Shown: in pieces, positions 3 through 64,000 of the stretch
Position numbering within the stretch: the first letter of the stretch is position 1
Layout: each line of letters begins with the position of its first letter
Assembly: GCA_039621445.1 (NCBI GenBank)
Contig: CP154954.1
Coordinates: forward strand, 33,643,455-33,707,454
DNA from: Euglena gracilis
Taxonomy: Eukaryota
Length of the DNA stretch: 64,000 bases
Direction of reading: 5' to 3'
Made by a program: the position numbers and the translations under genes
The notes under the pieces: generated by a model
Databases searched by the model: none
What the model was told of the DNA's origin: nothing
Seen by the model: the letters and a program-made list of their open reading frames with translations, nothing else

Positions 3-1163
3 CGCGATGAAGCGCGCGGAGCTCTCCTCATACCCGTCAATCCGAATGCGGATTGGTTTCACCAACTATCCCATGTGTGTTTTCATTGGTGGGATTTACC
101 CGCTGATGTACCACTATTTGAGGATTTTTGTGGTATATTATTACCACCTGTTAAATAAATCATTTTTCGCGTTTGTTTCTTTGACGCATTCGGAATATCC
201 GATTTGCGTGTGCCAAGATACCTTGGTACCAATGGGGATGCCACACCCTCAACGCAGATTTCTGCGGTCATTGAGAGTGCGGACCAACACCCCAAGTCTG
301 CTGACTATTGTTCGCGAATTACTCGCGAATTTCATGGTGTACTGGATAATCCAGTTTACGCCTGCGACATCGACCCCGCGATTCGCGGTCCGTTCGGTGT
401 ATGCAAAATCGAGCTCAAGGATGGCGCTAAACCCATGCACCGGAAATTTTTCCGTTGTTCGGGTGAACGCGAACAGGCTCTCAACGAGATGATTGAGAAG
501 CTCATCCAGCGGAAGTGGATTATCCCTTCCAAGAGCGAGTGGACATCACAAGCTTTTGTGGTGCCCAAACCCGCTGACCAGTCTGGTCAGAAGAAGTGGA
601 GACTAGTGCTGGATTACCGGTACCTGAACTCCCAAACGAAGGATGACCCCTTCCCGTTACCGCTGATCGAGGATTTGATCACAAAACAATCGGATAACTG
701 GTTGTGGTCAATCTTTGATCTGGAAGACGGTTTCCATCAGATGCATTTGCATCCTGATTCGCAACCGTACACGGCATTCGTGACATCCAAGGGTGTGTAC
801 CAATGGACGGTACTCCCCATGGGTGTTAAGAATGGCCCAGCCATGTTTCAACGCATGATCCAGTGGGTTTTGCGCGATTTACCGTTTGCTCTGGTGTACA
901 TCGATGATGTACTGGTGGGAACCCAACCGCCATCCGCGAAATCGGGCGAGGATATCCTCGACCCGCATTATCGCGATGTGCGCGCGGTATTATCCGCGTT
1001 CCAAAAGCATGTGCTTTTTGTGAAGGGTTCCAAAATGCACCTGTTTCGCAAGATTATTAAGTTTTGCGGACACATCCTGAGCAACGGGCAGCGTAAAGCC
1101 GCACCCAGTAAGATGGAGGCCATTAAGAAATGGACTCCTGAGGATCATCCTCTCGGACTTTGA
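3..1163 (+). pseudogene. pol fragment: reverse transcriptase (Ty3/gypsy type), preceded in frame by a possible methylase-like segment; RNase H and integrase absent
   Basis: Motifs WRLVLDYRYLN, FDLEDGFHQ, LPMGVKNGPAMFQ, YIDD, KFCGH. In-frame TAA at 156-158. RT similarity stops abruptly at KKWTPE (~1140). Confidence 0.9.
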
Positions 1164-1167
1164 GCAT

Positions 1168-4100
1168 ATGCTCAGGTTCAAGGAGGAGCTGGAGGACGAA
1201 GGCTGGCGAATGCAGCATGATTACCATGTTGCAGGAAACCGCCCCGTCACTCCTCCACAAGCAGTCATCGATGTGGTATTACGCCACACCGAGAACCGAG
1301 TCAGACTATTCCATTACGGAATAGATCTGTACGCCTTCGAAGGTGAAGGTGGCAGACCCTTGCTGGATGCCCAGCCGGGTTTCTGGGAACTCTGGTTTTG
1401 GCTGGGATACCCCTGCCAGAACTGGGGTCTCTTCAGCGATTCCACTGGTCGCAGTTACCTGCACCAGTTGGGTTTTCGGGACCAGCGTTTGTTGGCCCGA
1501 AGGCTGAAGGCAGTCTTCGACTGTATTCATACAGTCGGACCCCTCGGCGTGCAGTGGGAATTCTACCCACTACACCCCGACATCGAACGCCTGATCGAGG
1601 TGTTGTGGTGCAACAACCTTCAGGTATGGCTGGTGAGCCGTTACGGCTCCACCTTCCGCGTTAGGCCTGTTTCCCTGGCTTACCCGCAGAGGTATGACCT
1701 CTGTTGTAAGTACTGCCGGCAGGAATTTCCTGTCGACTTCTGGGGATTCGGCGTGCGCGGAAGTCCTCCACCGCCTCGGGATAACCCGGGCCTGGAGATG
1801 GGACGCCGCATGCTTATGCATGTGTGCCGCGACGCCCCGGATGTCCAGGGCAAAAGTCGCCGCGTCCACAAGCAGCGTATTTTTATGCTGCAGCAGTTCT
1901 GGTGGCGAGCCTGGACCACCTATGTCATGGAGGTGTATATACATCTCCGTGACCCCCAGGACGATAGGCCTGGTATGGAAAGCCTGCCACCGGATTACGG
2001 TGACGCCATCGAGGGTCCTCGTCGTCGGATTCTCGGCCACCTGCGCCCCAACTGGCACCTGGCTGATATCAGCCTGGAGGAACATTTGCGGCGACAGTTT
2101 GGCGGTACCCTCGACCGGGAGGTATTCCTTCCGCTGATGTCTCACCCGAAGGCCATCCTCGACCAGCGTATGCCGATTCTGGCATGCGTTCAGGAGTTCG
2201 AGGAGGGCTTTTTCGAGGTCTGGGAGGACACGCGTTACCGCGGCTTCCTGGGCCCGAACAGGCCTGCCAACGCCTGGGTGCAGCCATCATGGCCGCCACC
2301 CTGGCCCAACAGCGCCAGTAGCAGTACGCTGGCCTTTTACAGGCTGGCGGATGCCCAGGGATGCCGATGGCACCCCGACGATCCTCGTTCGCCCGAGGAT
2401 CTGCGCGCCTTCATCGCCCCAGAGGATGAACCTCTGGCGCGAAGGAGACGTGAGGCGTCAGTCGCTTCCACCACTGCGATTCCGCGGCGGGAGGAACGCG
2501 ACCGCAGCCCCTCTGTCACCATACTGGAGGCAACGCCGCCGTCTCCGACAGGAACGGCTGTATCCTTCGTCTCTGCCCCGCGAGCGGCAGGGGAACGATC
2601 GGTTTCCCCGGCTCCCGCGGCGGCTTCCGTCTGTCCACCGGTAGGTGGAGACCAGGAACTACCTGAGGAGGTAGGTGAGAACGTGGAGGATATCCTCTAC
2701 GCTGCTCTGCCTACTCTGGCACAGCCTAGGCCAGACGAAGCACCTGCAGGGGATATACCTGTGGCTGCAACGCCTGTCCCGACGGCTGAGCCCCCAGCCG
2801 AGGTGACTGGTATGGTCGTCGAGGATATCCTCGAAGATCCTGCCAGCCCCACAGCACGCACCTCGTTAGGAGGCCGTGTGCTCGGCGCCGTGGTCACTGG
2901 CATTACTGCCGTGGCTGCTGCACTAACGCCACGAGGTGGAGGCGTAGCATCAAGCTCCGCCGCCGAGGTCGTGGAGACACCAGATGTTGGTGTCCCCGCA
3001 CCCCCATCTCCGGCAGCAGTGCAACCACCATCAGGGGATGAACCCCAGGCGACAGAGCCATCTGTCGCACAGGCTACAGCGGAGGATCAACCTCCCGTAG
3101 CACCTGCGCCAGCGGTTGTGGAGGATCAACCTCCTAGACCAGATGTCGAAATGGAAGTGGAGGAGATACCCCCACGACCACCGACACCGCGCAGGGTCCC
3201 TGCCGTCCCGAGGACAATGGCAGAGTTTCTGGGAGCGCCAGCGCCTGTGGAAGCACCGATTCCGGTGACGACCACAGTGCCACGCTTCGTCGGACAGGAT
3301 GAACCTGTTCGGCGACGGCCGGCTGAACAACCCCAGGAACGAGTGCCAACCCCTCGGAGCGTCATGCGGGACCCAGCGGTCAGTATGCCCGCTTCGCCCA
3401 GACGGCAAACGTCTACTCCGGCACCATCGGCTCCTGATACCAGGAGTAAGCCGCAGGCGTCGCCTCCTGATTCCGGGAGTGCGAAGCCGAAAGGAGGCAA
3501 ACCGGGTGCTGCACCCTGTAAGCCCCCTTCCAAAGGCGGTGATGGGAAACCACCACCGAAAGGTGGCGCTGGAGGTCAGACTGGCGGACAGCCGAAAGGC
3601 CAAACGACAATGCACGACTATTCGGCCGTTGCATCGTCCGGGTACGGCCAGAGCAAACCGAAAGGTAAGGCTCGTGGTCGACAGGCCCAGTCTTCCGCCG
3701 GATCGACGGATGAGGAGCAGGATGAACCTGCTTCACCTCCTGTGTCTGCGGATGCCCAGCTCTGGACCCAGGATATCCTGACCAGACTAGGTACCGTGGA
3801 AGAGAGGACGAAGAAACTGGCTGCTATTAGGCACCAGACAGGGTCACTGAATCGATGGATTCAGCCCCTCTTCGTCCGCGGAGAACCTTTCCACTATGTC
3901 CCGGAACATACCTGGACATTCTGGAACAGGCGCTCACCCAGAGTACTGGCACAGTACTTTGGCGAGGACTGCGTGTTGGATTTCCAGCACGGCACGTCCT
4001 TTGCCTGGACGTGCACCGTGTGCCACCATGTGCGGCACAACCAACCGCTTGTGCATGTGTGCAAGCGGCAGGTGCAATCTTCGTGGTTCCACCACAGGGC

Positions 4101-4992
4101 ATATGTGCCGAACTGTGTGGCGCTCGTATGTGGCGAGTGCCTGAATGCCTGGAAGCACAGCTTGAACTACTCCTACAGTGAGAATGCTCACGACAGGGAT
4201 ATCCCTGCCTTGTGCATCAACTGTATAGGAGGCAAGTTCGTGCAGACTGCTGATGGAGCAGTCGCCACCATTGTCCCCCAGCACTGGGAGACATTGGAGA
4301 AGTGGAAGAAGGAGTACAAGCAGGTGGAAGGCCGCCTGAAGCACTCCGACTTCCGAAAGGTAGAAAGCTACCGCCACACGGGAATGGCCCGTGAGTTCCA
4401 GATCGACGCTGGGGCAATGCGCCTCGCCGTCGAGGAACACGCCAAGGTAAGAATGCCTTACCTCTGGACTGATGGCGACTGGGAGACACAGGTTTACCCC
4501 CTGTTCTCCAAGCGTCAGCATGGCGGATACGCCTTGCCACTGTGGCCTCCTGAAGAACACGATTTGGTGGACTTCAGAGGTTGGTTGGCGGCTGTATTAC
4601 GGCCCCATACCGCAAGAGCTCGGACAGCGAGGTGGATGTATGACATCAACTTCAAGCAGACCCCGGGGATGCCCCCGCAGGTGCCTGCGAATCACCCCCG
4701 GATGAATTACATCATCTGGCCGGTGATGCTGCCCAGAATTTTCTGGGAGCAACTCCAACGTTATCTTCAGCATCATGCTGAACGTACCAGGGAGAAGCTG
4801 CCGGATAATTGGATCAAGGACTGGGAGACCCCTTCCTTTGATGTCAACGATCCGGAGCTCAACACCATTCGGAGTGAATCAGCTCCGCCGCGTTCCCCAC
4901 GCCAACTGGAGTTGGTTGAGGACCCATTAGGGGACCCCCAACACGACTACTGGCGTGAGGTGCGCGAACGCCCAGCCGATAAAGGCAGGTGA
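1168..4992 (+). CDS. 1274-aa retrotransposon accessory ORF of unknown function (globular N-terminus, long Pro/Ala/Glu linker, Cys/His-rich C-terminal domain)
   Basis: Uninterrupted 3.8-kb ORF with CxxC motifs (CKYC, CTVC, CGEC, CINC). The stop codon falls inside the PPT just before the LTR. The frame is also open upstream of the ATG (LRIILSDFEH), so the true N-terminus was probably deleted. Confidence 0.8.
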   Translation: MLRFKEELEDEGWRMQHDYHVAGNRPVTPPQAVIDVVLRHTENRVRLFHYGIDLYAFEGEGGRPLLDAQPGFWELWFWLGYPCQNWGLFSDSTGRSYLHQLGFRDQRLLARRLKAVFDCIHTVGPLGVQWEFYPLHPDIERLIEVLWCNNLQVWLVSRYGSTFRVRPVSLAYPQRYDLCCKYCRQEFPVDFWGFGVRGSPPPPRDNPGLEMGRRMLMHVCRDAPDVQGKSRRVHKQRIFMLQQFWWRAWTTYVMEVYIHLRDPQDDRPGMESLPPDYGDAIEGPRRRILGHLRPNWHLADISLEEHLRRQFGGTLDREVFLPLMSHPKAILDQRMPILACVQEFEEGFFEVWEDTRYRGFLGPNRPANAWVQPSWPPPWPNSASSSTLAFYRLADAQGCRWHPDDPRSPEDLRAFIAPEDEPLARRRREASVASTTAIPRREERDRSPSVTILEATPPSPTGTAVSFVSAPRAAGERSVSPAPAAASVCPPVGGDQELPEEVGENVEDILYAALPTLAQPRPDEAPAGDIPVAATPVPTAEPPAEVTGMVVEDILEDPASPTARTSLGGRVLGAVVTGITAVAAALTPRGGGVASSSAAEVVETPDVGVPAPPSPAAVQPPSGDEPQATEPSVAQATAEDQPPVAPAPAVVEDQPPRPDVEMEVEEIPPRPPTPRRVPAVPRTMAEFLGAPAPVEAPIPVTTTVPRFVGQDEPVRRRPAEQPQERVPTPRSVMRDPAVSMPASPRRQTSTPAPSAPDTRSKPQASPPDSGSAKPKGGKPGAAPCKPPSKGGDGKPPPKGGAGGQTGGQPKGQTTMHDYSAVASSGYGQSKPKGKARGRQAQSSAGSTDEEQDEPASPPVSADAQLWTQDILTRLGTVEERTKKLAAIRHQTGSLNRWIQPLFVRGEPFHYVPEHTWTFWNRRSPRVLAQYFGEDCVLDFQHGTSFAWTCTVCHHVRHNQPLVHVCKRQVQSSWFHHRAYVPNCVALVCGECLNAWKHSLNYSYSENAHDRDIPALCINCIGGKFVQTADGAVATIVPQHWETLEKWKKEYKQVEGRLKHSDFRKVESYRHTGMAREFQIDAGAMRLAVEEHAKVRMPYLWTDGDWETQVYPLFSKRQHGGYALPLWPPEEHDLVDFRGWLAAVLRPHTARARTARWMYDINFKQTPGMPPQVPANHPRMNYIIWPVMLPRIFWEQLQRYLQHHAERTREKLPDNWIKDWETPSFDVNDPELNTIRSESAPPRSPRQLELVEDPLGDPQHDYWREVRERPADKGR

Positions 4993-8147: not shown

Positions 8148-8552
8148 CAGGCTTTTGCTTAAGGACCCCCGGGTACTGGCTAGCCAATCGGCTAGACACT
8201 GGAAAAAGTGGACTAGCTAGACCCCCCCCCTCCCCCCCGGGGTCCCCGGACTGGAAAAAAAATTTTCCTCCGGCGCACAGCGCCGGAGGAAAAATGAGGT
8301 TTTTAACAGGTTTTTGGCTGATCTTGCTCCAAAAATTCCCAAAAATGGCCAAAAACGGGCATTTTTGGCCATTTTTGGGGGTCCCAAAAAAATTTTCGGC
8401 GCTTCGCGCCGGTCACTGGAAAAAATTTTTCCACTAGCTAGCCCTGCCAGCAGACCCGGGGGGGTCTGCTAGAAAACCCACTAGCCAAATTTGGACTAGC
8501 TGCAGTCCAGCCCCCCCAGGGGGGGTACTGCAATCCCTTAAGCAAAAGCCTG
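8148..8552. mobile_element. hAT-like MITE
   Basis: TIR CAGGCTTTTGCTTAAGG / CCTTAAGCAAAAGCCTG; perfect 8-bp TSD GTTGTGGG. Second copy at 23324-23726; a further right end at ~13370-13489. Confidence 0.9.
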
Positions 8553-9724
8553 GTTGTGGGTGAAAATTTCTTTTCAAGAATCTTGGCTTTTTTCATTCCT
8601 GGACCATTTGAAAGCAAATTTCAGATGGTTTCAACCAGAAGAGCGATCACAATTGGTCGTTTTGCAGATTTTTTTATGAAATTGCCCCCCCCCAAAAGCA
8701 AAGGAAAAAAGGCTGGGTTCGATATAAGGAGAGGGGGGGTGGTCCGGACCCCCCCTGCGGGCCAGGGGGGGGGGGGTGGGGGGCCCACCTAAACAGTGGC
8801 GCGGTCAGGGTGACCGATTTGGCCCGGCGCAAAGCGCCGGGCCGAAAATTTTTGACCCCCCCAAAACGACCAAAAGTGCCATTTTGCGCACTTTTTGGGC
8901 AAAAATTGGCCAAAATGCAAAAATTTTCGCTTCGCGCCGGAGGAAAAAATTGTCCCTTTTTTGGGGTGGTCCCGGGTACCCCCCCGGGTCGGGGTGGGGG
9001 GGGGGGTGGGCCAGGAGGGCGGTGGGGGGGGACACCCCCCACCTAAACCATGTATGCCCTCCTTATATCGAACCCTGCTGGACCCCCCGGGGTAAATGCG
9101 ATGTCGCCCCTCGATCGAAAGCTCTTTTCATCAAGACGTCCAACGATGGCTTCAGAATTCAGCCACGACGCACAGATCTCTTATTCCGAAATTCCGGAAA
9201 ATTAAACAGAGCCTGACTTCACTCAGACATTACATGGAACCTGCAGCAGGTCGGTCGATCTGACTGAAAAATAGCTTTAATAAGGTTCGCGAAAACCCAA
9301 AAGTTGCGAATCCATGAGCTAAACAATAATCTCGAATTACAATCTGGACAAAAACAACAGGAATAGAAATGAAGCCAATTTCTCCTGTCATTTTCTCCGG
9401 CGTTTTTTTTCACCCAGAAATTTTTACACCCTTTGTTGAGCTTTCAGTGTAATCAAATCTCAGACACAAAAACACAGGGTTGTGAAATGTGGTCAGTTTC
9501 CGGGGTCTTCTTTGCATGAAAAGAAACCTCAAAGAAGACCACCACAGAAATCGTTGCGAAAGATCTTTATCACAAGAACCACAAAATGGCCACAATTTCC
9601 GAAATTTTAATTTATTTATTCATTTTTCCAAATTGAAATCTACCCAACATTTTTTTTGTGTTTCTTCCCAGTCATTTTTGTTTCCCATCATTTTTTGTCT
9701 GGAGCACAGGTTCCAGGTGCAGAG

Positions 9725-38500: not shown

Positions 38501-41500
38501 AGCATGCATATACACAGACACAGACACAGACAACCCCCCCCCACCAGCTCCCCCACGCCTCACATCTGGGCAAGGGCCCGTCGCTGCTCAGAGGGTCCCC
38601 ACCACGGAAGGAAACGCTGAGGCGTGGTCGCACAGCTTCTCGTCGGACTCTGTCAAGATGTGGACCACCGCCGCCGGGAATGGGGCAGGCCCTGCAAAGT
38701 GAGCATGCAGGCAGGGATCAGCCTTCTCTCAGCAAACCCGGAGAGAGGGGAATCTCCCCCACCCAACATGTAATGTCCCCCCTGGTGGCGTGGTGGGGGC
38801 GGAACAACAAAAAAACCCATTGAGGGAAAAACCCATTCTTCATCAGCTTTTTGACCTAGTCCTTGAAATTTCCATTGACATGGAATTTTGACAAAAACTT
38901 TCAGATTCGCCTGAAATATGAACTTCAAAACCCCATTTGCCATCAGTTTTTAAATCGCTAGAATGTGTGCAAATCTGGGCACAACATTGTATGCTAACCC
39001 GTCCGCCAAGACATTCATTCCCTAAACATGAAAAAAATTATCTGTCCAAGCACATTCAATGGAAAATCCACAAGCAAAACGGCCGGAAAATGGCCATATT
39101 TTGGCAAAAAACCAGTCCACTTCAGGGGGGGGGGATGGTTTCTGGCATCCTCCGACCATCGTCAATCCCCCACGGCACAAATTTTGCAATGAATGAAAAA
39201 TGTTTTGAATTTTTCAATTTTTAACCCCGTTCCACGCCTGGACCGGCCATTGGCCAGCCTTTGGGCCAAAAGCCGGCTATTATCCTTGCACAAAGCCACA
39301 CAACCAACCCGTGCACAAGCCGTGCGCACACCCATACACAAAGTCATGCGCAAATCCATGCACACATGTGTGCGCAAATTCGTCTGCAACCCCGTGCTCA
39401 AACCCGAGCGCAAACCTGGTAAGTCCGTGTGCAAATCCATGGGGAAAACCCTTGCGCAAAATTCTGCACCAATCCGTGCGCACTTCTGTGCCGCTAATCC
39501 ATGTGCAATCCTGAAACCCATGCGCTTGCTAACCTGCAAGCTAACCTGTGCAAACAACCATACGCACAAAAAGGTCCTTACGGTCCTCCCTGTGCGCCTT
39601 CCAGCCTTACGGGCTTGAGGGCCATTCCAGCAAATTGAATGAAAACTTCACAGGAAAAATGGGTGAAAATTCAGAGTTTCTCAGCAAACACAGGTAGGCG
39701 TTGGGAAAAAATGGTTTCTGGCATCCATGGATCATCACCAAAGCAGCCAAATATCAAAAAATGTGTTTTTCGACTTTTTAAGTTTCGACCACGTTCCAGT
39801 CCCGGTTCGGCCCTCGGACCCTTGGGCCCTTGGGCCTCAAGCTTTTCGTTAACAGGGGAAAAAAAGCAAATTTCCTGTCCCTTATGGACCGCCCTGCATA
39901 TGCAAACCCTGTGCACAAGGGTTTGTGCACAGGTTAGTGCACGGGTTTGAGAACCGGTGCGTAAACCTGCAGAAACCCATGTGCAAATCTGTGCGCAAAC
40001 CTGTGCATATCATTGGTCACAGAATTTTAGATTTTTTGTCAGAAATGCGATTTGTGTTGTTTTTTTTGAAAGTTGCTTTCCATTTCATCTTTTTCTCTGA
40101 ACTGATTTCTGGTTTACGCACAGGTTTGTGTCAAGGTTGCGCACCGATATTGGCAAGAGCCAATATCGGTCCAAGCACGTGCGGGTTTGTGCAGGGGTAG
40201 GCACACACATCAAATCAGCATTAGTGTACGGGTTTGCGCACAGGGCTTTGCACGGGATGGCAGCAAACCCCCCAAACAGCCCCCCACGGGGGGGGGTGTT
40301 TGGGGACTCCAGGGGGAGGGGGTGTTTGCTGGCACCCGGTTCCGAAATTTCTGACTTTTCGAACCTGCGGCGCATGGAACCGCGCCGAATGCGGGCGAGT
40401 GGGTGCTATTTAGGAATCGGATCAGGGTTGGATCGGCGAGGCGAAAATTGGTTAAACTTGGGGAGAAAATTGGGCTGAGAGTTAGGTCCCCGATTTGGAA
40501 GATTTTCCAGTCGCACATTTGCCCGAATTTTCCGAATTTCGTCCATAATTTGGCTCAACTGGATCGGAATCAGGCCTACCTTATTTCGATGTTTCCGATA
40601 CTTCTTTCTTTCCATTTATTTCAAAATTTCCGATGTTTGGGAAACTTGCGGAGATCCCCCTGGAGTCCCCAACGCCCCTCCGGGGAAGCGGAAAGGCTGG
40701 AATTGGACAAGCACTTGGGAGAATTATTTGCCTGCTGAATTCAAAAGTTTATTGAAATTGCCTTTGGGGTTCCTGCACGCCCGCAAATCAGAGCAATATG
40801 TCCACGACGCAACAAAGCCACATCAAACATGCAATCCCATTGAGGGGGGGGGGGCAGTTCATCTGGTGGCGAGTTTGAGCCAGCTGAGACATCCAGTCCT
40901 GTCCCTCCACAGGTTGTGGCAGGCACACCGGGACTCGTCCCCAACGTGCGCGGCGGCTCCAGCTGCCCCAACAGCCCCAGCGCGTCACAGCAATGCGATG
41001 GGCCAGGCCTTTGCCCCCTTCGCCCCCGACACCCCCGATGGGACCCGGGGCGATGGGGCTCCTCCCGGCCCGGCGGCCAAAGCCTGGGCAGGGCCAGGCC
41101 CACGAGGCTGCTGTGCCACACCGGCAGCCAGCGGACGGCCTGCAGCAGCGCCAGGGCCCCGGGAAGGTCGAACACCGGCACTGCAGGCGGTGAGGTGGCG
41201 CTGCGGACCTGGCCGGGCGGCAGGGCACCCTCCGAGCAAGGTGCAACTGCTGTCTGGACAATTTTTTTTTACCGACCTCGGAGGGGGGGTCACTTTCCCT
41301 CTGACCAAACCCAGTCAGTCACCACCCCCTGGGGGTTGGCCACTCTGTTGGCCTCTGGGATCCAAGACAAAATTGACCACAATTGTGGGGGGGGAAAGCC
41401 AAAAAGTTTTCCAGCGCCTTCAGCGCCAGGTCTCTTTAATGCCCCCCCCCCTCTGTGGGAGGAAGGGTTTGGGCCAAAACCAGTCAGTCATTCTGAAAAT

Positions 41501-53149: not shown

Positions 53150-54552
53150 CTGCGGGGACAGGGGGCAGGGGGCAGGAGAGGGACAACCCCCCCCCACGCC
53201 ACTCATCACTACAATTGTGAAAAACTCTTGAGCTCTGATGCGATTCCCGTCGATCTGTTGGTGCACCGTGACAGCCGAAAACACAAAAAACGGGCTGAAT
53301 CTCACTTTTTGCGACGAGAAATGAAGCAAACAATTTTCCTTCGCTTGCGCAAAGAAACTCTAAAACTTAAATGCGAATTATGCTGCCTGAGTGTACCTTT
53401 CTTCTTAGACGGCCGGGAATGCACTTTTCTTGTTGAGTCACAAAATTTAGGCAGTTTTAGTGAAAATGCGCATCCGCGCATTTTGGACGCGGAGTGCGCA
53501 GGTGCGCATTCTGAACGTGTCGCGTGCGCTTTGAAACCAGCATCCAAATCGCGTAACGGGAGCGCTCTAATATTTTGACGCGTGCCGAATGCTTGTTTTC
53601 TTTTTTTTCACAGTGTGCTCTGTATCGCATTTGGCTACGAAGAAGATTGTGAGGTGACTGCCCCCTGACGTCAGCTACACCCCCACACCCCGCCGAGGCA
53701 GCAATATTGCGGGATGTTGGAGATCCGAATTGGGGTGATCTGGATGGAAAGGGGTGGTGATGTGTGGGGTCGGGGCCACCATGCTGCGGTGGGTCACCTG
53801 TTTCCAGTTGGAAGGTTCTAATTGGTCCGGTGCGTGTGAGAGCAGGAGGGGATGCGACCTGGGTGGACGTGTGGGTGTTTGACCGTGTGGCAGACCCGGG
53901 TGGTCTGAATGCGCAGACGCGCATTCAGACCAATGGTGTGAAGAATGCGCACCTGCGCATTGAGGATGTCCGGATGAATTTTGTCCCCCCCTCCTTTCAG
54001 GGCTGGTGCACGGGTGCCGGTGTGTTGGTGATGGTGGTGGTTACCACCCCCCTCCCCCCGAGGCGCGAAGGACTGCTTTCCAGTCGGGCTCGTGGTTTGC
54101 AGGCCCAGTGTTGGTACGGGGTGTGCTACATGCTTACCTGGCGGTTGTGTTCCGACTGTCTTTTCCTGTTGAGTGTGGTTTTGAACTGTGAGTCAGCCAC
54201 CCCCGCAGCTGACGAATGGAGCGGCCACGCACGACACTGGATCCACTGTTGTCACACGCCAACACCTGGCTTGGCGTGCCGTAGCTGAGTGTGAACGTTG
54301 TTTTCTGCAGCTGGCCATCACACCCACAGGCTGCAGTCATTCGATCACAACCGAGACGACCTCAGACCGGCTGTCAGACCGTTACACCTTGTACTGCAGA
54401 ATGCGCATGTGCGCATTGTGTCGTACAATGTACATTACGTCTCCCTCAGTCGTATGTTACCACCAGATCGTACGATGAATGCGCACATGCGCATTGTTGA
54501 GACGTTACGTGGTAGTGTCCTTTGACCGGTTTGTACCCCTTCTTACGGATGT

Positions 54553-57060
54553 TTGTTTGTCCTTGGCTGCTGTCTCGGCGGCTCCCGCCAGTCGGCAGTC
54601 CCTACACCCACCTCAACCTCCCCATGCCCCGCCAACCCCAGACACTGTAACGGGCCAGGCACGCGCACACCCCCGCCGCCCGCGCCTGCGCCACCGCGCA
54701 AGATCATTGGCCGGCTGGTGCGGGACACCTTCGTCGCCACGTACGCCGACTTCGTCACGGCCGTGGTGGACCCGCCCCACCCCCTGTACGAGCTGGTGGT
54801 CCTGGTGGCCCACACCCGGGTCCCGTTCCGCCGCTCCCCGGACAGCGACCACCTCCTGGCCGAGCTGACCCGCCGCCCCCGCCGACAGCGCACGGAGATG
54901 CTGCTGCGGGACGCCTGGGCCTCGTACCGGGCCCACCGCCAGCACGCCTGCCCGCGTGCCCCGCAGCCCCGCGTCGCCGCCGAGGACGTCCCCCTGCCCG
55001 CCACCCGCGCCCTGGGCCGCTTCCTCCGCCCCAGCGGGGTCCACCCAGCCGCCCTGCTGCACTCCGCCGCCGACCGCGCCCGGCTGGCCCTGGCGCGGCA
55101 GGCCGAGCTGTGGCGCGACCTGGCCGGGAACCCCGCGGTGCTGTGGTTCGACAACTACTACAAGCGGCGGTACCGCAACACCCCGCGCCAGATGGAGGCC
55201 CACCTGAACGTGGTGGTGGTGGCGGTGCTGCCGCTCGTGGACCCCGTGCCCCCGTTCCCCGGCCACTACTCCCTGGAGCAGCTGTGGCAGCGGCACCTGC
55301 TGGTCGGTACCGAGCTGGCGGAGTACGGCGGCGGACGGCTGCGGGAACGCATCCGGGCGGTGGCCGACTGGGACCTGCCGGCGACGGACTTCCGGGTGCC
55401 CCTGGACGTGAGCCGGCCCCGGGTGGAGGCCCTGCCGTGGCGTCCGTTCCTCATGGGCGACCACGCCGTGTCGGCCCAGGTCGGCCTGCTGGAGGTGCTG
55501 CGCTACCTGCAAGGCTCGGTCGCCGACCACCTCGCCACCCCGGTGCCGGTCCTCGTGGACGAGAACATCTGGTACCGGGTGGCGAGGCTGCTGTACGGCC
55601 GGGAGCTGCAGCGGTGGGACGTGTCGGCTGCCCTGACGCCCCTCCCCATGCTGTACGCGGTGTGGCACCCCTACAAACAGCTGGTGCACACCATATACCG
55701 GCGGTTCCTGCCCCTCTTCCTCTACGTGCAGAGCGGCACCCTGGCCCGAAGCGGTACGGGCAGCTTCCACCGGCCCAACCTACAGACCCTGGAGCGGTGG
55801 CTGGGGGCCCTCCTGCTGGTGCCACGGGACACCCGATTGCGCATCTGCGCATTCCGGGACCGTCTGGTGCGTCGCATGACCGTGGTGGAGCGCGAGGCGG
55901 CGCAGCGGGCGACGACCGTGGCGGAGCGACGGGCCCAGCTGGAGGCGGCCGAGGCCCACGTCCGGCAGCAGCTGGTGCGGGTGTGCGCCGGGCAGGCCCC
56001 CTGGTCCCGGGCCGAGCGCGCGATCGCCGGTGTGGAGGAAGCGGAGGCGGCGCTGCAGCGGGCCGAGTCTGCACTGCGGGATGCCAACCAGGTCGTGCGG
56101 ATCCTGCGGGCGGACAGCACCATCCTGGCGGCGCTGGCGGATCTCCTGGGGGAGTGGGCTCCGGCGTGTCTGGTCCTGGGGGAGATGGTGCGCACCTGCC
56201 ACTGGGAGCTGCGACAGTCTGGCACCGGTGGACACGCCCTCGAGGTGCTGCATGGCAGCCTCGCCCTGCTGCTGCGTCTGGAGGCCCCCGGCGAGCGCCG
56301 GACGGAGTACATCCGGACCGTGGGTGTGGCCATGCTGTGCTGGATGCCGTGGCACGCGGCCCTGCCCGCGGCCTGCTTCAGCGAGGCGGCGCTGTCCCGG
56401 CTCGGGCAGGAGAACGAGCGGCACCCCCTGGCGGTGAGCACGGATCAGGTGGGGGACCTGTACGCGCTGCTGGAGACCGGTCGGCCCGGTGTCAGGGCGC
56501 TGCGGGGTGGCAACGTGGGGCAGCGGTGGGTGGACACGGTGCGCGGACACGTGGAGGACCTTCTGGAACGGTGCGGTGCGGAGCAGCGGCTGCCCGTGGT
56601 GCCCGGACCGGGGGTGGCGATTGAGTCCGTGTCCGACGTGGTCCGCTATGTGGCCCGGCTGACGGAGCGGGAGTACTCCGTGGGCGAGCCCTGGCCCGCG
56701 GACTGGAGCCACCCCGCCAGCCTGCTGTCCGTGGACCTCACCCCGGAGGACGCGACGGCCACGATGCGGTACGCCTTCCTCGCCCTGGTCGGGGACAACC
56801 TGCCCAACGAGGACGTGCAGCGGGAGCTAGATGGCCTGTGCGCTCGGCGGAGCGAGGAGGAGGTCGTCCAGTACCTCCGGGCGTGGGACGGCGTGGCCGG
56901 GCGCGTCCGACCGGAGGCGAAGCCCAAGGCCCAACCAAAGGGCAAGCCGAAGGCGAAGACCCAGCCAGTCGCCGTCCCCCCGGTGCAACCAGCTGTTCCG
57001 AACTGGCGGGGCATATGGAAGAGGATCGTTTGTCAGTCAATACCAAAGGAATGTGAATGA
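54553..57060 (+). CDS. putative DDE (RNase H-fold) transposase, Academ-like; main exon
   Basis: Ordered motifs VLWFDN (D 55150), PVLVDENIWY (D 55558), LYAVWH (H 55666), a helical/coiled-coil insert, TEYIR, and FSEAALSRL (E 56383). Probable small upstream exons at ~54001-54113 and ~54208-54390, and a decayed downstream exon at ~57393-57850. Confidence 0.65.
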   Translation: MFVLGCCLGGSRQSAVPTPTSTSPCPANPRHCNGPGTRTPPPPAPAPPRKIIGRLVRDTFVATYADFVTAVVDPPHPLYELVVLVAHTRVPFRRSPDSDHLLAELTRRPRRQRTEMLLRDAWASYRAHRQHACPRAPQPRVAAEDVPLPATRALGRFLRPSGVHPAALLHSAADRARLALARQAELWRDLAGNPAVLWFDNYYKRRYRNTPRQMEAHLNVVVVAVLPLVDPVPPFPGHYSLEQLWQRHLLVGTELAEYGGGRLRERIRAVADWDLPATDFRVPLDVSRPRVEALPWRPFLMGDHAVSAQVGLLEVLRYLQGSVADHLATPVPVLVDENIWYRVARLLYGRELQRWDVSAALTPLPMLYAVWHPYKQLVHTIYRRFLPLFLYVQSGTLARSGTGSFHRPNLQTLERWLGALLLVPRDTRLRICAFRDRLVRRMTVVEREAAQRATTVAERRAQLEAAEAHVRQQLVRVCAGQAPWSRAERAIAGVEEAEAALQRAESALRDANQVVRILRADSTILAALADLLGEWAPACLVLGEMVRTCHWELRQSGTGGHALEVLHGSLALLLRLEAPGERRTEYIRTVGVAMLCWMPWHAALPAACFSEAALSRLGQENERHPLAVSTDQVGDLYALLETGRPGVRALRGGNVGQRWVDTVRGHVEDLLERCGAEQRLPVVPGPGVAIESVSDVVRYVARLTEREYSVGEPWPADWSHPASLLSVDLTPEDATATMRYAFLALVGDNLPNEDVQRELDGLCARRSEEEVVQYLRAWDGVAGRVRPEAKPKAQPKGKPKAKTQPVAVPPVQPAVPNWRGIWKRIVCQSIPKECE

Positions 57061-58322
57061 ACGGTGTGAATGCGCATGTGCGCAATCAGTGCTGAATGCG
57101 CATGTGCGCAATCACTGCTGAATGCGCACATGCGCATTCAGCAGTGATTGTACTAGATGTTCTGAATTGTGTTGGTTTTGTCGACTCACTCGTGGTACTA
57201 AGTGGACAGTGCAGCCGCTGTGTCATGGGTTATTCCACTGGCTACTCGGTGTATGTCATGACGGCTTCTGCCAACCAGTCGCCTTCTTGCCTTGACCGAG
57301 AGGTCATTACAACAGAATGCGCATGTGCGCAAACTAATTATATACGACAGACTTATCCGAAATCACTTGTAATGCGCGGATGCGCATTACAAGTGATTTC
57401 GATCGTTGGGAGTACACAGACCCACTGAACGACCCGGTGCGGTGTGTGACCACGTTTTCTTTTTCGCGAATTGACTTGGCAAATGCCCCGCCAGCACCCA
57501 CCCGCCATCGTCCTTCCGCACGGCGCAGCCCCTGTTCGGCGGTCCGTGTTCGAGCAACCCGCTCCCCCCGCGCTGCAGGCGGCGGGCCAGCCCGTCCCGG
57601 CGGCTCCGCGGTGGTGCGTCCCGGGCGTCCCCCACCTCCGTGGCGTCGGCCCAGAGGCCCGGGCCGGTCTCAGCGCCCCCCACCTGGCGGGCCGCATCCC
57701 CGATCCCGTGCCGCCCGCCACGGGCCCCGACGTGTACCTCCCAGCCAACCCCGACGAGGACGTCGCCTGAGCTGGGGCCCCGTACCGAGCGGGGCACCCC
57801 ACCACCCGGGACACGGAGGCGCTGCACTCATCCGACGTTCTGGAACGATTGGGAGGCCTGGGGGGGTGCCCCCAAGTGTGCCGAACACCGGGGCGGAAGC
57901 CCCGGGTCTTGCGGAGCCTCGTTTCGGGCAGCTGGGCACAAATTTTTCAGCCAAAAAAACTCCGCGTACAGTACGCGATTCTGCGCGACTGGCATTGCAC
58001 ACGTCAGAGGGTGTAATTTTGTTCAGTGATTTTCGACAAAAACAAAACCTCAGGACTTTTCAAAATTGTGCATCCGAAATATTTCTACTTCCCCTGACCT
58101 GTTCCGAAAATCGGCACCGCAGCAGGCGCCGCCGCTGTCGAAATCGCCTTTTCTGGCCCTTTCAGAGGCATGCTTAAAAAAAAAATCATTTTGGATGGTT
58201 TTTTCCTCGGGAGGGCTGGGGGATGCATCAATTCAAATAAATGAACTGAGGGCTATAGGGGTTGCCGCCCCGTACACAGAGAGTGATGTACCATTTCTCG
58301 ACCGCAGGGCACCGGCACCCCC

Positions 58323-61300
58323 ATGTCCCGCCCCCCATCGCCAGCCCCCTCAGCCCCCGACGTGCCGGAGCCCCTCGAGGCACCCCCCACCCAAGGCCCG
58401 GCAGAGGGGGAGGGGGAGGAAGCGGAGGAGGAGAGGCGGAGGAAGAAGAAGAAGCGCGTGGTGGAGGCCATCGCGAGCTGGGCGGGCGGGAGGCCGGAAG
58501 ACTGGCTGCTGCCGGGAGAGCAGCGCATCGAGCTCACCAAGGTGCGCTTCGACCTGGCCTGCAGAGAGGGGCAGGTGCGGTCCTTGGTGGCGGAGGACGT
58601 GGACCGCGTCTACGAGGCGATGCGCACCAACCCCCCCCCCCACCGTGCAGAGAGTCGTGGTGTGGGCGGCGGACACCATCGGTGTGTTTGCGCACGTGCG
58701 CATTGTTTTGGTTGTGAGTTGCTTTGCATAGTAAATTTATGGATGGATATGCATTGAGTGAAATGAGGAATGCGCACCCGCGCAAACATGCACTGGTTTT
58801 GGTATCCATACCTGGCTTGCAGTTTCTTTCCACCCCCCTGCCTGCCTCGTGCGTCTCGTCACAGACCGGGAGTACGTGGTGGTCGGCGGGCAGCACATGA
58901 CGGCGGCACTGAAGAAGATGGCGGAGGACTTCCTGAAGGAGCGGCGGGAGGTGCCGGAGCAGTACCGGTGGGTGCTGGCGAGGGTGCTGAAGCACGGCAC
59001 CCCGGTGGCGATGCGGCAGCTGGCCGGCGGCGACAACCAGGCGCAGCAGATGCAGGTCCACGGCCTCCCCCTCAGCAGCTTCGCGGCGCTGCTGCTGGGC
59101 GACGACGTGCGGGCGGAGGCCAACCCGAAGGTGAGGCTGGCGGTGGCGCTGCAGAAGGCGGGGTACGACCGGACGCAGAAGACGGTGTGCTTTGTGCTCT
59201 ATGGGGGTAATGGATGATGATGCAATGTGGGTGGTCAGAGTACGGGAGATGGAATGCAACAGCCTGTGTGTGGCATCACATGATTGCGCACATGCGCATT
59301 CTTCTCACATAAGAGAAGAATGCGCATGTGCGCATTTGGCCCTTTCTTTGGAATGACCATAAACCTGCCTCCCGCCTCTCACACTCAGGACATGGCCACC
59401 AAGGCGTACCGCCCCCTCCAGCGCTGGGTGGAGCAGCTGGGGCAGCAGGCCATCGAGGCGCTGCGGAAGCTGGAGGCGACGAAGAAGGGCCTGACGGTGT
59501 CGGCGCTGCGGTCGCTGCGGATGCTGATGACGCCGGAGGCGCGGGCGGCGGTGGTGCCGGCGCTGCTGGGGGAGAGGCCCAAGCTGCAGGACTTCGAGAA
59601 GGCGGTGAGCGACGCCTGCCTGGAGATGTGGGTCAACTTCCACTGGACGGAGGCCAACCGCTTCATCCACCCGGACGTTGGTGTGCTTCTGTCACCCACC
59701 CACGTTTGCATTTTGTCCCATCTAATGTTATGGATGCATCTTGCTCTGGACATTGATTGCTCTGTGTGGGGTGTACTGCATGTTATGGTTCGATTGCGCA
59801 CCTGCGCATTCTCCCCACCACTCCCGTTCCCTGCCCCTCGCAGTGGAGGACAGGGCTGCCAGATGGAGATTCAAGGAGGCCGTCGCACTCCGCTATCTGG
59901 TCGTGCGGCTCGGGCGCTGGGAGTGGCGGGAGGACGCGACGTGCCCGCCCTTCACGGCGCTGGCCACCGCCGAGGTCTGGACGTCGGTGAAGTTCGAGGC
60001 GCTGCGGGAGAGCCTGGCCGCCCCGCGCCCGAGACCGAAGGTGGTGGTGACGGAGGACCCGGCGCACCTGGCCTGCGTGGACTACGCGCGGGAGGTCCAG
60101 GGGCAGCAGAAGACCCTGGCGAGAGTGTTTTGTTACTCGGCGGCGTCGGAGGCGGGGGTGCCGATGCAGGCGGAGCAGGCTAGGGTGCGGATGGTGGTGG
60201 TGCAGGCGGAGAGGGGGGTGGCGATCGCGCCGCAAATGTACGTCGTGGCGGACGACGTCCCCGTGGTGGTGTTCGGGCCGCCGGCGCTGGCGCTGGCCAC
60301 GGTGGAGCACATCCACCGGCGGGTGGCCACCAAGCACCGGCTGGATGTGGACTGCTGGGTGAGGACCGAGGTGGTGGAGTTCGGGGCGCAGCGCCACCGG
60401 CCGGTGAAGTTCTCCCTCCACATTCTCCTGCACGACACGGAGCTGGACAGGCTCAAGGTATGTGTCTGCGACCCCGTCCCTGAACCTCTGAGTCAATGCC
60501 ATTACATAAACGCCGTGAGTCGGGATGCATAATCCGCCTGGAGAGTGCTTGGATGGATCCCTGGCCGTGAATGCGCACCTGCGCAATCCTCCCTTCATTG
60601 GGATGATTGCGCATGTGCGCATTCTTATTTGCGTTTGAAAATTGTTGCATCCCATATCCTTGTTGGCATTCCATATGATGTTCGAATGCGCACCTGCACA
60701 ATACCTACCCCCTTTGCTACCCCTGCTCAGGTCCCTCCCGTCATCTTCTGGGACCGCGAGTCCAACGGCTCGCCCGACGCACTGCACTGGGCCGTGGTGG
60801 ACTACCTGTGGCGCCGCGCTGTCCGGCGCCCGGTGGAGGTGGACAGCTTCCTCCTCCTCCAGCTCCCCTCGGCGGTGCGGGTGGGCCACCTCCTCAACTG
60901 GACGCCCGACCCCCCGCACATGGTAGCGGTCCTGACGGGGAAGGAGAAAGTGCAGCCGGTGGAGTACACCGAGCACATCCGGCACGCGGTGCAGGAGGCC
61001 TGCCCGGTGGACAACACCGGGCTGTGGAAGCAGCTGCAGGACGCCGTGGAGAAGTCCGAGCCGCTGTGGACGGTGGTGGAGTCCGAGGTGCTGAAGCAGC
61101 TGCTGGAGGTGAAGGCGACGGAGGCCCAGGCCCGGAAGGAGGCCGTCCAGTGGCGGTCGGAAAAGAAGAAGGAGCGGGCGGCCAAGCGGGCCCCACAGTG
61201 AGGGAAGGCCAAGGCCAAGCCCAAGGCCTGACCCAAGCCCAGCACCTCCCAGGGGGTGCCTGAGTCCCTGCTGCGCACGGCCCGGATCTACGAGCGGCGG

Positions 61301-62150
61301 ATCCGGAGGAACATCGCCAGGGAGGAGGGGCGGCCCCCACCGGTGTTCACGTCGGATGAGGAGGAGGAGGATGAAGAGGAGGAGGAGGGCCAGGTGGCCA
61401 GTGGATGGTCGTCGCCGCTGTCGTCGCACCCCAGCTACGCAGAGGGGGAGGAGGCCGAGGCGGAGGCGGAGCCCGAGGCCCCGGAAGGCCCAGAGGAAGC
61501 CTCTGCACAGGTGGTGGAGGGTGAGGGTGGCGAGGAGGGGGAGGGGGAGCAGGGGGCCGCCCAGGCTGCGGTGGAGCCAGAGACCGTGGTGGAGTTCGAG
61601 GAGGAGGAAGGGGGCAGGGGGAGGGAAGAGCGGCGAAGGCAGCCCGTGGTCCCGGTGCCCCCAGTGGAGGAGGTGGAGGCCCCAGAGCCCACTCCCCCCC
61701 CCGCCCCGCCCCGTCCCCAAGAAGCCCAGCGGCCCCCCACCCCTCGGCATGATCCGGCGCCCCGGTAGGCAAGACTGTCCCCCCGCCCCGGAGGCCCTCA
61801 CCCCCAAGAAAGAAGAAGCGTGGTACGCAGGAGGAGGAGCCGGAGGCGACGCCACCCCGCAAGCGGAGGACCTCCCTGCTCTCCAGCCCCAGCCCAAGCC
61901 CCAGCCGCCCCGAGGACCCGCCGGGCGGCAACGTCCCCAGCAGCAGCGCCCGCGCCTCCTACTCCTCCAGCCAGCCCCCCTCCCCCAGCCCGCAGCCCCC
62001 GGCCGGTGCCCGATCCCAAGCCCAGTCCCCAGCCCGCGGCCCCCAGCAGCAGCAGTCCCCCACAGCGCGGTCCACCCTGCAGGAGCGGACGACCAAGTTC
62101 ACCCTGCTGCCCTTCCCGCCGCCGCGGAAGGAGAAGTGAGACCACAGGGG
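58323..62150 (+). pseudogene. spliced gene with an N-terminal NLS-like tract and ParB/Srx-like domain and an acidic/Pro-rich tail; this copy is lesioned
   Basis: GT-AG introns 58682-58864, 59185-59388, 59681-59843 and 60458-60730 join in frame. Motifs GQVRSL...TNPP...VVVW...EYVVVGGQHMTAAL. One extra C in the C-run 58631-58641; in-frame TGA at 61199 and 61229; TAG at 61766. Confidence 0.7.
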
Positions 62151-63544
62151 GGTGCACTCCTCTTCAGACTCCCAGCCCAATGCAACATTGCGCATGCGCG
62201 CATTCTTCTACTCACAGTGTATTGATTGCGCACATGCGCATTGTTTTCCCATGCACACCCCTCTCTTCCCCAGAGGCAATTCCCTCCCATTCTGTCAACC
62301 CCTCTCGCATGCACAGTCGACATAGCCGCCGGTGGGTACACACGGTGCACACAGCGTCCGGGCCAAAAGAATGCGCACATGCGAATTCATCCCCTCTCCT
62401 GAATCATGCATGCCTTTTGGATTTGGTTTACCGCTCAGTGCACGCACACCGGCCAGCAGCACACACCCCAAGCGTACACTTAGGCGGCCCACTGGACCAG
62501 GGTGGCACACCCGAGGCCACTCGGGGGTTCACCCCTGGGAGGTGGACCAGGTGCGGGCACACCCCTCCCTCTCCCCATGGAAGAGACACAAAGGCCAAGG
62601 GGAGTGCACCTACCAGCGCGTCCAGCGCTGCGCCGGGGCCGGCAGCGGCGGGGCGTCGGGCGGCGCAGGCGTGCGGCCAGAGGGCCGCAGTGTGTGCAGG
62701 GCACGGCGTGCCTCGGAGATCCCCTGTGGGGCCATGGGACCCTGTCACACCCCTCCGTCAACCCTATACCCCCGGCGAACCATATCCACGCCGCTCCAAC
62801 CGTGTGTCGGACCGCCCATCCCTCTCTATACCCCTGGCACTCTCCCTCTCCCTCCCCCCTATATCGGACCAAGGACCAAAGGACAGCGAGGGAAGGTGAG
62901 GGATGGGACCGGCAAGGGAGGGAAGGGCGTCTCCAGCCAAAGGCCCCTGCTTTGCCTCCAAATCAAAATAAAGGCTGGGGAGGGGGGAGGGGGGTGAATG
63001 CGCACCTGCGCAATACCGAGGCCACCGGGGAATGGGGAAAGCCGGCGGGTACCGTACCTCCACCGGACGAGGGTGCCGCCTCGAAACACAGCGTTTCGTG
63101 TCGCACCGCCTTCGCTTGACGAGGTGTTTCCCCCGGCCGGCGGAGGTCAAAAACAGGTCTCCTCAAGGTCAAAAAAGTCGGATTCCTCAAAAAAATCCTC
63201 GGACACCGGAAGTCGTGGTACACCTTTGTTCTCGATCACCTCGGCTTGTCGGGTCGGCCGCCCCGTCGGGTGGTAGTGACTCACTCGGTCAAAAAAGAAT
63301 GCGCAGGTGCGCAAACTTAGGCAAAAAGTGAAAAGTGCATTCCCGGCCGTCTAAATTCTTACGCCTGTTGGGGGAGCCACTCCCTGAAATGTTGAATTTT
63401 CACATATTTTCTTTAAATAAAAGGTTGGCCATAATTTATTTCCCGTGATTCCACCCCCGTAATTTCTGTCTCCCATACCCCCCTGGGCCGATCAATCAAA
63501 AATCCAAAAATAAGACCCCCCTTGACGGCGCGAAGCGCCGGGGA

Positions 63545-63827
63545 CAGGCTTCTTTTTAAGTCACCTGACCCCCCCCCCGGGGGGAGGGGGGGTGGGTGGG
63601 TGGGTCCGGGCCGGACCCCCCCCCCGGGGGGGGGGGTCCCGCGCCGGAGGCGCTGGGTATACCTTTTCGGTGCGAAGCGCCGAAAACTTTTGAAAATTGC
63701 CTTTAACGGGCCCGATTGTGAGGGGGGGGGCCCTGGCCCCCCCCCCCGGGGGGGGGACCCGCGTCAACCTGGCCTGGGGGGGGGGGGGAACCCCCCTCCC
63801 CCCCCGGGGGTCTTAAAAAGAAGCCTG
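63545..63827. mobile_element. hAT-like MITE
   Basis: TIR CAGGCTTCTTTTTAAG / CTTAAAAAGAAGCCTG; perfect 8-bp TSD GCCGGGGA. Confidence 0.9.
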
Positions 63828-64000
63828 GCCGGGGACAGTGAATATTTTCCCTCAAAAATTACCAAAAACCCCAATTTCATACACAAAAATGATGAAATTT
63901 CAGAAATTTTCAGATTTTTGAAGTGCAAAAAACATGATAAATATCAATTTACACCAATTTACACATGGCGCGAAGCGCCGAAGGAAAAATTGCAGTGCTC

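Follow-up and report, generated by a model that had tools for sequence, protein, structure and literature searches.

We analyzed a 64,000-nucleotide (nt) stretch of the Euglena gracilis genome (assembly GCA_039621445.1, contig CP154954.1, positions 33,643,455 to 33,707,454 of the forward strand), hereafter called the window, whose own coordinates are used throughout. It contains a DNA transposon on the plus strand, at 53405-63354, in which a short palindrome recurs 25 times, probably as the binding site of a dimeric protein encoded by the element. The transposon is delimited by perfect 25-bp terminal inverted repeats (TIRs) at 53405-53429 (plus strand) and 63330-63354 (minus strand), which an inverted-repeat search showed to be 100% complementary and which bound 9,950 bp. 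Between them lie a large open reading frame (ORF) for a putative transposase (54700-57060, plus strand) and a second, intron-containing gene on the same strand, gene 2. The termini of the element read TTAGACGG. The eight bases outside the two TIRs differ (CTTTCTTC versus ATTCTTAC), so that this one copy has no 8-bp target-site duplication. The bases abutting the TIRs are likewise not repeated, and TTCTT is found on both sides of the copy, one base off each TIR.

The element is a repeated one. In two DNA sequencing runs (X1 and X2), the left flank had a summed word depth of 24 and 852, respectively, compared with 8,404 and 212,986 over the first 350 bases, with the jump at 53351-53701; depth was far above that of the flank along the whole element. 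Because word depth is not copy number, we took these values only to indicate repetition of the element, stronger at its ends. Contigs from both runs carried many unrelated flanks before 53402-53404. A very abundant relative, shorter than the element, has the same left TIR and initial pair of palindromes and diverges into unrelated sequence at 53510/53511, where loose ends agreed at 0.84-1.0 across four runs, two of DNA and two of RNA. The element diverging at this point was also present in both RNA runs, with 4 reads each. No splice joints were found in the RNA runs X21 and X24, of each of which about 5-6% was read (76 and 51 reads placed, 70 and 40 only partly on the window).

The palindrome, first pointed out in a first-pass annotation made from the letters of the window, is real and occurs far above chance. 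All figures on its confinement refer to the window, that is, to the 10-kb element and the other 54 kb, and the shuffled windows used as controls preserved dinucleotide composition. An exact-match scan with TGCGCANNTGCGCA gave 18 matches, all within 53495-63313, and none in any of 100 shuffles (mean 0.00). Allowing up to two mismatches, the 18-mer AATGCGCANNTGCGCATT matched 24 times, always within 53465-63315 (shuffle mean 0.04); at up to three mismatches there were 25 sites between the TIRs and none in the other 54 kb, in line with the earlier statement that no full copy lies beyond the TIRs. Exactly four mismatches added three weak matches, two outside the element and one inside, and the bare hexamer TGCGCA was counted 46 times inside versus 19 times outside. 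In the literature searched, with supplementary files outside its scope, we found no description of this motif or of this transposase family.

Derived from the 25 sites, the full consensus comprises 20 bases, GAWTGCGCA-NN-TGCGCAWTC. The core TGCGC was present in 49-50 of the 50 half-sites, and position 2 of the half-site was A in 34 and T in 15 of them. Conserved half-sites around a variable centre had been described before; the centre does vary, although not freely, its dinucleotide being CA/TG at 12 sites, CC/GG at 8, GA/TC at 4 and CG at 1. The TIR contains GAATGCAC, which resembles the half-site without GC, a hint that a half-site minus two bases may be built into the ends. Among 40 listed differences from the window (438 more exist), none fell within a site, while about 1.7 would be expected, which says nothing on whether the sites are conserved among copies. 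In addition, 21 distinct joints listed from the contigs (35 and 37 further rows lie beyond these) had 23 of their 42 ends within 7 nt of a site, compared with an expected 7.5%. We did not take these joints as mapped deletion derivatives: most of them have a short side of about 20 letters that is the palindrome itself, and they indicate only that those genomes contain the palindrome in other settings as well.

The sites are distributed over the whole body of the element, and 24 of the 25 lie in its non-coding part, which was scored as 46% of the element (binomial p=1.3e-7). Three are subterminal: site 1 (53465-53482, one mismatch) and, 28 bp from it, site 2 (53493-53510), directly after which the abundant related elements diverge, are found at the left end, and site 25 (63298-63315) is found at the right end, 15 bp inward of the TIR. 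Upstream of the transposase ORF follow site 3 (53908-53925), which is the centre of a hairpin with a 14-bp stem according to folding, and the exact matches of site 4 (53944-53961, 36 bp from site 3), site 5 (54400-54417) and site 6 (54478-54495). In or beside gene 2 are 18 of the 25 sites, of which 5 are in the upstream spacer, 8 in introns and 5 downstream. The spacer holds site 8 (57069-57086), starting 9 bp past the transposase stop codon, its 26-bp tandem copy site 9 (57095-57112), site 10 (57121-57138), which pairs in inverted orientation with site 9 to form a long hairpin, the 18-mer match of site 11 (57316-57333) and site 12 (57371-57388), the centre of a further hairpin. Downstream, the 18-mer matches of sites 21 (62187-62204), 23 (62370-62387) and 24 (62997-63014) and site 22 (62225-62242), 38 bp from site 21, precede site 25. 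Recurrent site-to-site spacings were 26, 26, 28, 36, 36, 36 and 38 bp.

Within gene 2, GT-AG boundaries and the reading frame, on which alone the model is built, place introns at 58682-58864, 59185-59388, 59681-59843 and 60458-60730. Under this model the introns carry 2, 2, 1 and 3 sites, as the first-pass annotation had it with one to three copies in each. Intron 1 contains site 13 (58687-58704), 5 nt past the donor GT at 58682, and site 14 (58769-58786, three mismatches); intron 2 contains sites 15 (59283-59300) and 16 (59319-59336), which form a perfect hairpin with 22-bp arms; intron 3 contains site 17 (59793-59810); and intron 4 contains sites 18 (60570-60587) and 19 (60606-60623), which form a hairpin together, as well as site 20 (60685-60702), one half of which is TGCACA. 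Insertion of miniature copies of the element as the origin of the introns was also considered and rejected, as no TIR-like sequence lies inside them. The claim that the long exons are free of the motif did not hold: site 7 (55836-55853) lies in frame within the 844-codon transposase ORF, where it encodes LRICAF.

We examined whether the sites are kept as sequence or as structure in an alignment of all 25. In this alignment, 85.2% of cells were paired compared with 86.7% after shuffling, and no pairing measure exceeded the shuffles. The pair 3-18 was unpaired in 14 of 24 distinct rows with zero compensatory change, and A or T at position 2 of the half-site was chosen independently in the two halves. 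The sequence of the site is thus kept and the stem is not. Independent choice of A or T together with the lack of covariation fits half-sites that are read by two subunits and not a selected stem.

The large ORF is open from 54526 to 57060 (844 codons); its product is given as 788 residues, and similarity to relatives sets in at 54700. Tblastn with the N-termini of homologues did not locate an upstream first exon, and there is no in-frame ATG near 54526. A word search recovered 3 homologues of the 788-residue product, while HMMER recovered 697 representative clusters, 92 of them below 1e-30, which gives a family of about 700 clusters at 50% identity. Pfam had no match in 39 aligned relatives at E ≤0.01 and no transposase family in 10 diverse members at E ≤10, no PDB sequence matched the transposase profile, and an ESM Atlas feature search returned no usable match. 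Seven residues are invariant in the 39 relatives (D153, N154, D238, D289, W324, H325 and E367), and the acidic ones among them, D153, D238, D289 and E367, are candidate catalytic residues. In the AlphaFold2 model of the protein (predicted local distance difference test, pLDDT, of 87), a core rich in beta strands precedes a very long hairpin of two helices (378-431 and 437-504). VIA-align matched the core only to the P-element transposase (6p5a_A; Z 9.6, root-mean-square deviation 6.7 over 285 residues, model range 130-597), the other 49 of 50 rows all lying on the helical hairpin (371-497), and Foldseek gave nothing at E ≤0.001, with Hermes at E 0.54. Given the invariant acidic residues and a modeled fold nearest to the P-element transposase, we call the product a putative DDE-type transposase of a family without a Pfam model.

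Assignment to established groups was considered and rejected in each case. Against membership in the P-element superfamily stand the lack of a THAP domain (no Pfam match in the 39 relatives) and of an 8-bp duplication in the one copy; against CACTA, Plavaka or KDZ stand the lack of a Pfam profile match and differing termini (TTAGACGG). A Mutator-like transposase accompanied by a VANC homologue was dismissed on the lack of a Pfam match for either the transposase or gene 2. The in-frame site 7 lies 15-20 residues past the invariant E367, at a position that is ungapped relative to homologues; P0004 reads RVRICAL and P0006 reads RLRVCAL there.

Relatives of the transposase with 26-36% identity are encoded on five metagenome contigs (L001 to L005), and these carry palindromes of their own. 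L001 (28% identity) has seven matches of the 18-bp ACGGCGAGGCCTCGCCGT at up to three mismatches, with a match in none of 200 shuffles: two are upstream of the start codon and 28 bp apart, as in the window, two are in the 734-codon ORF and three are downstream. In L003, GTGTT-N4-AACAC matches six times (three sites precede the ORF, one lies within it, one begins 7 bp past the stop codon and one is further on), and the same motif matches three times in L004, twice in coding sequence. The proteins of L003 and L004 are 47% identical and blastn found no nucleotide match between the two contigs, and the motif is common to both including the spacer variants TTTC and TCTC and the flanking AACG. L002 carries GTCCGCG-N6-CGCGGAC four times, once within the ORF and three times downstream of it; L005, a rearranged relative of L002, has one copy of this motif. 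All four lineages with DNA examined thus have a repeated palindrome around and inside the transposase gene, with four different motifs. What is new here is that repeated palindromes of a lineage's own appear to be a family trait, judged from these contigs. In addition to their main motif, the relatives have palindromes of the GCGATCGC type, namely at L003 326-340 and 941-956, L004 30-48, 446-460, 516-530 and 583-601, and L002 2251-2270; the GCGATCGC octamer is also the centre of one L002 site.

The coding sites of these lineages do not share a place in the protein. Those of L003 (one) and L004 (two) fall at non-homologous, ungapped places in the protein alignment, and the coding site of L001 lies 25-30 residues past E367 instead of 15-20 as in the window, and we therefore rejected a coding site at a conserved protein position across lineages. 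Coding sites that are ungapped and at differing places argue for repeated gain by substitution and not for insertion of a mobile unit.

We consider it probable from these patterns that the palindromes form a lineage-specific recognition code for a dimeric DNA-binding protein encoded by the element, with the transposase as the favoured binder, roughly twice as probable in our judgment as the gene 2 product. The transposase is favoured because the plan is common to relatives that show a transposase gene and no other, because the sites hug its ends and because short derivatives keep the subterminal pair. In such a mechanism, each subunit of a dimer would contact one GAWTGCGCA half-site. The candidate DNA-binding part of the transposase is its N-terminal region, which is helical and poorly conserved, and the long helical hairpin of the same protein could pair the subunits. 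The subterminal copies (53465, 53493 and 63298) would serve the recognition and pairing of the ends. The internal copies may raise local protein occupancy across the 10 kb and thereby contribute to self-recognition, self-regulation or accessibility; they could also aid the joining of ends 10 kb apart or regulate transcription or chromatin, as VANC does. The sites occupy DNA that can vary freely (introns, spacers and untranslated regions) and, in one case, the reading frame of a coding stretch. New sites arise through local duplication, either tandem or inverted, as well as through point substitution: tandem (57069/57095) and inverted (57095/57121, 59283/59319 and 60570/60606) duplications are how the clusters grow. 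The earlier proposal of a dimer-type protein site that marks the element agrees with conserved half-sites, variants that break pairing and other palindromes in relatives; the ParB label that it gave gene 2 was not confirmed. It is from the arrangement and conservation of the sites that we infer protein binding, the identity of the binder and the effect of binding.

Several observations weigh against this interpretation. Confinement of the sites was seen within the 64-kb window and not genome-wide, the RNA runs X21 and X24 gave next to no coverage of the element copy, and no DNA-binding domain was identified in the transposase or the gene 2 protein. Among the relatives, the motifs of L002, L003 and L004 were chosen after inspection of the data, L004 being the only independent replication of a motif. 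A blind screen with a stricter criterion (perfect 7-nt arms) picked out L001, with 5 recurrences, and, weakly, L002, with 2, and none of the other relatives; among 17 control chunks taken from the window, one had as many as 3 recurrences in this screen. Half-sites are separated by 0, 2, 4 or 6 bases depending on the lineage, which is awkward for one dimer geometry. Finally, the clusters of sites in the introns and flanks of gene 2 equally fit the gene 2 product as the binder, and a second gene beside the transposase of the relatives is possible, as their contigs span only 1.5-4 kb.

This leads to gene 2 itself. Its exons lie on the plus strand at 58323-58681 (exon 1), 58865-59184 (exon 2), 59389-59680 (exon 3), 59844-60457 (exon 4) and 60731-61201 (exon 5, to a TGA), followed by low-complexity ORFs in other frames up to 62139. 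They contain about 70% G+C compared with about 50% in the introns, and splicing exons 2-5 gives a reading frame that stays open for 564 codons. As assembled, exon 1 shifts frame by +1 within a run of C near 58631, where one base is absent in most of the depth of X1 (80.1 of 86.5) and X2 (2392.6 of 2499.3); the extra C is either a real frameshift or a homopolymer assembly error. Single-base differences in homopolymer length were also seen at 61694 and 61765 in X2 contigs, and the apparent frameshifts in gene 2 and its tail may be assembly errors.

The first-pass annotation had called gene 2 ParB-like and had proposed that the palindromes are parS-like loading sites or transposase sites by which the element is coated and compacted for end synapsis or shielded from silencing. 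In the parS version, a ParB-like gene 2 product would bind the palindromes, spread over the element and coat, compact or epigenetically protect it. This version has in its favour that most sites lie in or beside gene 2, as detailed above, and that a language-model search with exon 2 returned ParB_N and DUF6551 clusters at 0.88-0.89, which we regard as a lead only. The label drew on the motif VVVGGQHMTAAL in exon 2. This motif reads GGQH at the expected place, where ParB clamps carry arginines. Profiles, homologues, PDB sequences and folding gave the label no support. Exons 1 and 2 would each encode part of the presumed domain, and searches were run exon by exon: the exons had no match in Pfam, PHROGs or NCBIfam, exon 2 had no homologues in the near or longer length classes, and gene 2 matched no PDB sequence. 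Tblastn of gene 2 against phages gave only chance-level matches to tail proteins (E about 0.9), a single-sequence fold was unreliable (pLDDT 62) and had no ParB match in Foldseek, and no helix-turn-helix was identified. Moreover, the palindromes of L001 to L004 flank the transposase gene, and no gene 2 relative was detected in these contigs of only 1.5-4 kb (all E above 0.1).

ParB-like accessory genes have been reported in algal transposons (10.1101/2025.02.11.637652; PMC12477816). The former, a 2025 preprint, describes a ParB-like PAG3 gene in red-algal Plavaka elements with adjoining tandem arrays of inverted repeats, for which self-binding was proposed, and the latter a ParB-methyltransferase gene in an Ectocarpus Sola1 element; ParB-type fusions in chlorophytes are mentioned in PMC4738411. 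As in those cases, the present element is a DNA transposon with an extra gene that was proposed to be ParB-like, with nearby inverted repeats and a self-binding role proposed from sequence alone. Unlike in the window, the algal ParB domain can be recognized by homology and is joined to an oxygenase or methyltransferase domain, and the repeats form tandem arrays beside the gene; the palindromes of the present element are dispersed over all its non-coding parts and around the transposase gene, and its gene 2 has no domain that the libraries detect.

Taken with the negative searches, we regard parS-like loading by gene 2 as doubtful. A broader version, in which each lineage of a widespread, unclassified DDE family has a private palindromic address spread over the element including its coding sequence, and in which ParB-type clamp loading provides a partition-like coat here that marks, compacts or shields the element's own DNA, is improbable. 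Bacterial parS sites are recognized by ParB dimers, number few per replicon and function in segregation. The palindromes resemble them in length and in occurring in several copies, and reading by a dimer is proposed here as well, whereas no partner ATPase, confirmed ParB fold or cytidine triphosphate (CTP) motif was found in the element.

Next in probability, though very unlikely, is that the palindromes act as structures, either DNA cruciforms or RNA hairpins of untranslated regions and introns, which could be 3'-end or processing signals or sources of small RNAs. Every site can form a stem, and several sit inside longer ones of 14-22 bp. Larger inverted repeats had been noted at 57109-57150, 57358-57401, 59285-59334 and 60569-60624; they exist and fold beyond shuffles. 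The inverted arms are 32 nt with 94% complementarity at 57083-57114/57119-57150, 22 nt with 100% at 59285-59306/59313-59334 and 25 nt with 92% at 60569-60593/60600-60624, and the 20-bp stem at about 57358-57401 was seen by folding. As DNA, the four hairpins had z-scores of -8.5 to -9.8, and none of 200 shuffles folded as well; the hairpin of sites 9 and 10 reached -40.5 kcal/mol (z -8.5) and that of site 12 reached -24.7 kcal/mol (z -9.8). The position of the first downstream site, 9 bp past the transposase stop codon in the window and 7 bp past it in L003, would also suit such a role. Against it, variants among the 25 sites break pairs with no compensatory change, the central loop would span no more than 2 bases, sites are found upstream as well as downstream of genes and in the subterminal DNA, and the RNA runs gave no support.

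Also very unlikely, and slightly more so than structure, is that the palindrome is a neutral by-product, prone to slippage or fold-back copying, that multiplies under weak selection. Local tandem duplication with a 26-bp period at 57069-57121 and inverted duplication at 59285-59334 speak for it, and avoidance of coding DNA suits it as well. It does not account for a core nearly invariant over 50 half-sites, for a motif in common between L003 and L004 in the lack of a blastn nucleotide match, for coding sites gained by substitution with no indels, or for sites hundreds of bases apart in unrelated contexts. Least probable of all is a host dimeric transcription factor acting on the central CANNTG, an E-box that TGCGCA-NN-TGCGCA always yields and whose centre is here limited to few dinucleotides, given that the relatives' palindromes are unrelated and have no CANNTG, that conservation reaches 7 bases past the centre on each side and that the full site is absent from the other 54 kb of the window.

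We therefore return to sites for an element-encoded dimeric protein, for which the closest known counterpart is the VANDAL/VANC system. According to passages of the VANC21 study (PMC5735166), the chromatin immunoprecipitation signal of VANC21 and its 9-base motif YAGTATTAY concentrate in introns, intergenic and terminal non-coding DNA of VANDAL21; related VANDAL families have other motifs, targets grow by tandem repeats, and the binder is an accessory protein with a demonstrated effect on methylation. The element in the window resembles VANDAL21 in having a short motif that is dense in its own non-coding DNA (24 of 25 sites), rare elsewhere, family-specific (four motifs in four lineages) and growing by local repeats. 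The VANDAL21 motif differs in that it has 9 bases, is non-palindromic and runs in one orientation, in a Mutator-like element with a known element-encoded binder, whereas the window has 18-20-bp palindromes in an element with another transposase family and a putative binder. That transposases themselves can be sequence-specific regulators of their own copies is argued in a 2026 preprint (10.64898/2026.08.24.746577).

There is also a likeness to cut-and-paste transposons with several copies of a short motif inside their ends, in both orientations, which are required there in cis and kept in short non-autonomous derivatives. The 12-bp motifs of En/Spm bound by TnpA and the hexamers of Ac are such subterminal repeated binding motifs, and Lemi1/Emigrant elements reportedly belong to the same group. 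Motifs of the En/Spm and Ac type lie within a few hundred bases of the ends, unlike the sites in the window, of which only 3 of 25 are subterminal, with the others spread along the 10 kb between the ends. Systems of this kind are thus known; palindromic sites over the whole body, occasionally in frame, in a sizeable transposase family appear to be what is distinct here.

The window contains further repeats, and mobile elements seem abundant in it as a whole. At 159-4989, an ORF for a reverse transcriptase (RVT_1, E 4.6e-28) precedes one of 1,303 codons that had no match in Pfam, and the palindrome arm ATCCTCG recurs three times in the first 3 kb. GCGCGAAGCGCC has five copies at up to one mismatch (63528-63539, 63670-63681, 63968-63979, 8398-8409 and 8827-8838; shuffle mean 0.22, with 0 of 100 shuffles reaching 5), three of them in the 500 bp to the right of the element among long C/G runs, and may represent a second repeat family with its own palindrome. 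Single TGCGCA hexamers without full sites occur at 39323-39477 and 39992-40235 in a degenerate repeat of about 24 bp (for example, CGTGCGCAAATCC), a region that supplies 8 of the 19 hexamers outside the element. Beyond the window, a scan of public collections for paired sites matched 3 viral contigs and more than 120 prokaryote contigs, and the two prokaryote matches examined were bacterial repeats unrelated to the element. Pairs or arrays of GTGCGCAATTGCGCAC were seen on the prokaryote contigs L009 (556-607) and L020 (844-1197) and in many Bradyrhizobium and other bacterial genomes (at least 120 contigs), from which it follows that the TGCGCA-NN-TGCGCA core is also used by unrelated bacterial repeats. 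No relatives were found in viral contigs and prokaryote genomes with search patterns that fit only the close subfamily of the window.

If the binder is indeed encoded by the element, this would be a second, independent case beside VANDAL/VANC of a transposon-wide private address, and one with a palindromic, dimer-type code in a different transposase family. Motif and protein would change together among lineages and so provide natural pairs of a DNA-binding specificity and its target. Such pairs might be used to study the evolution of self-recognition, the mobilisability of non-autonomous derivatives and the use of introns as room for regulatory sites, and the sites could provide a simple sequence tag for members of the family in unannotated genomes.

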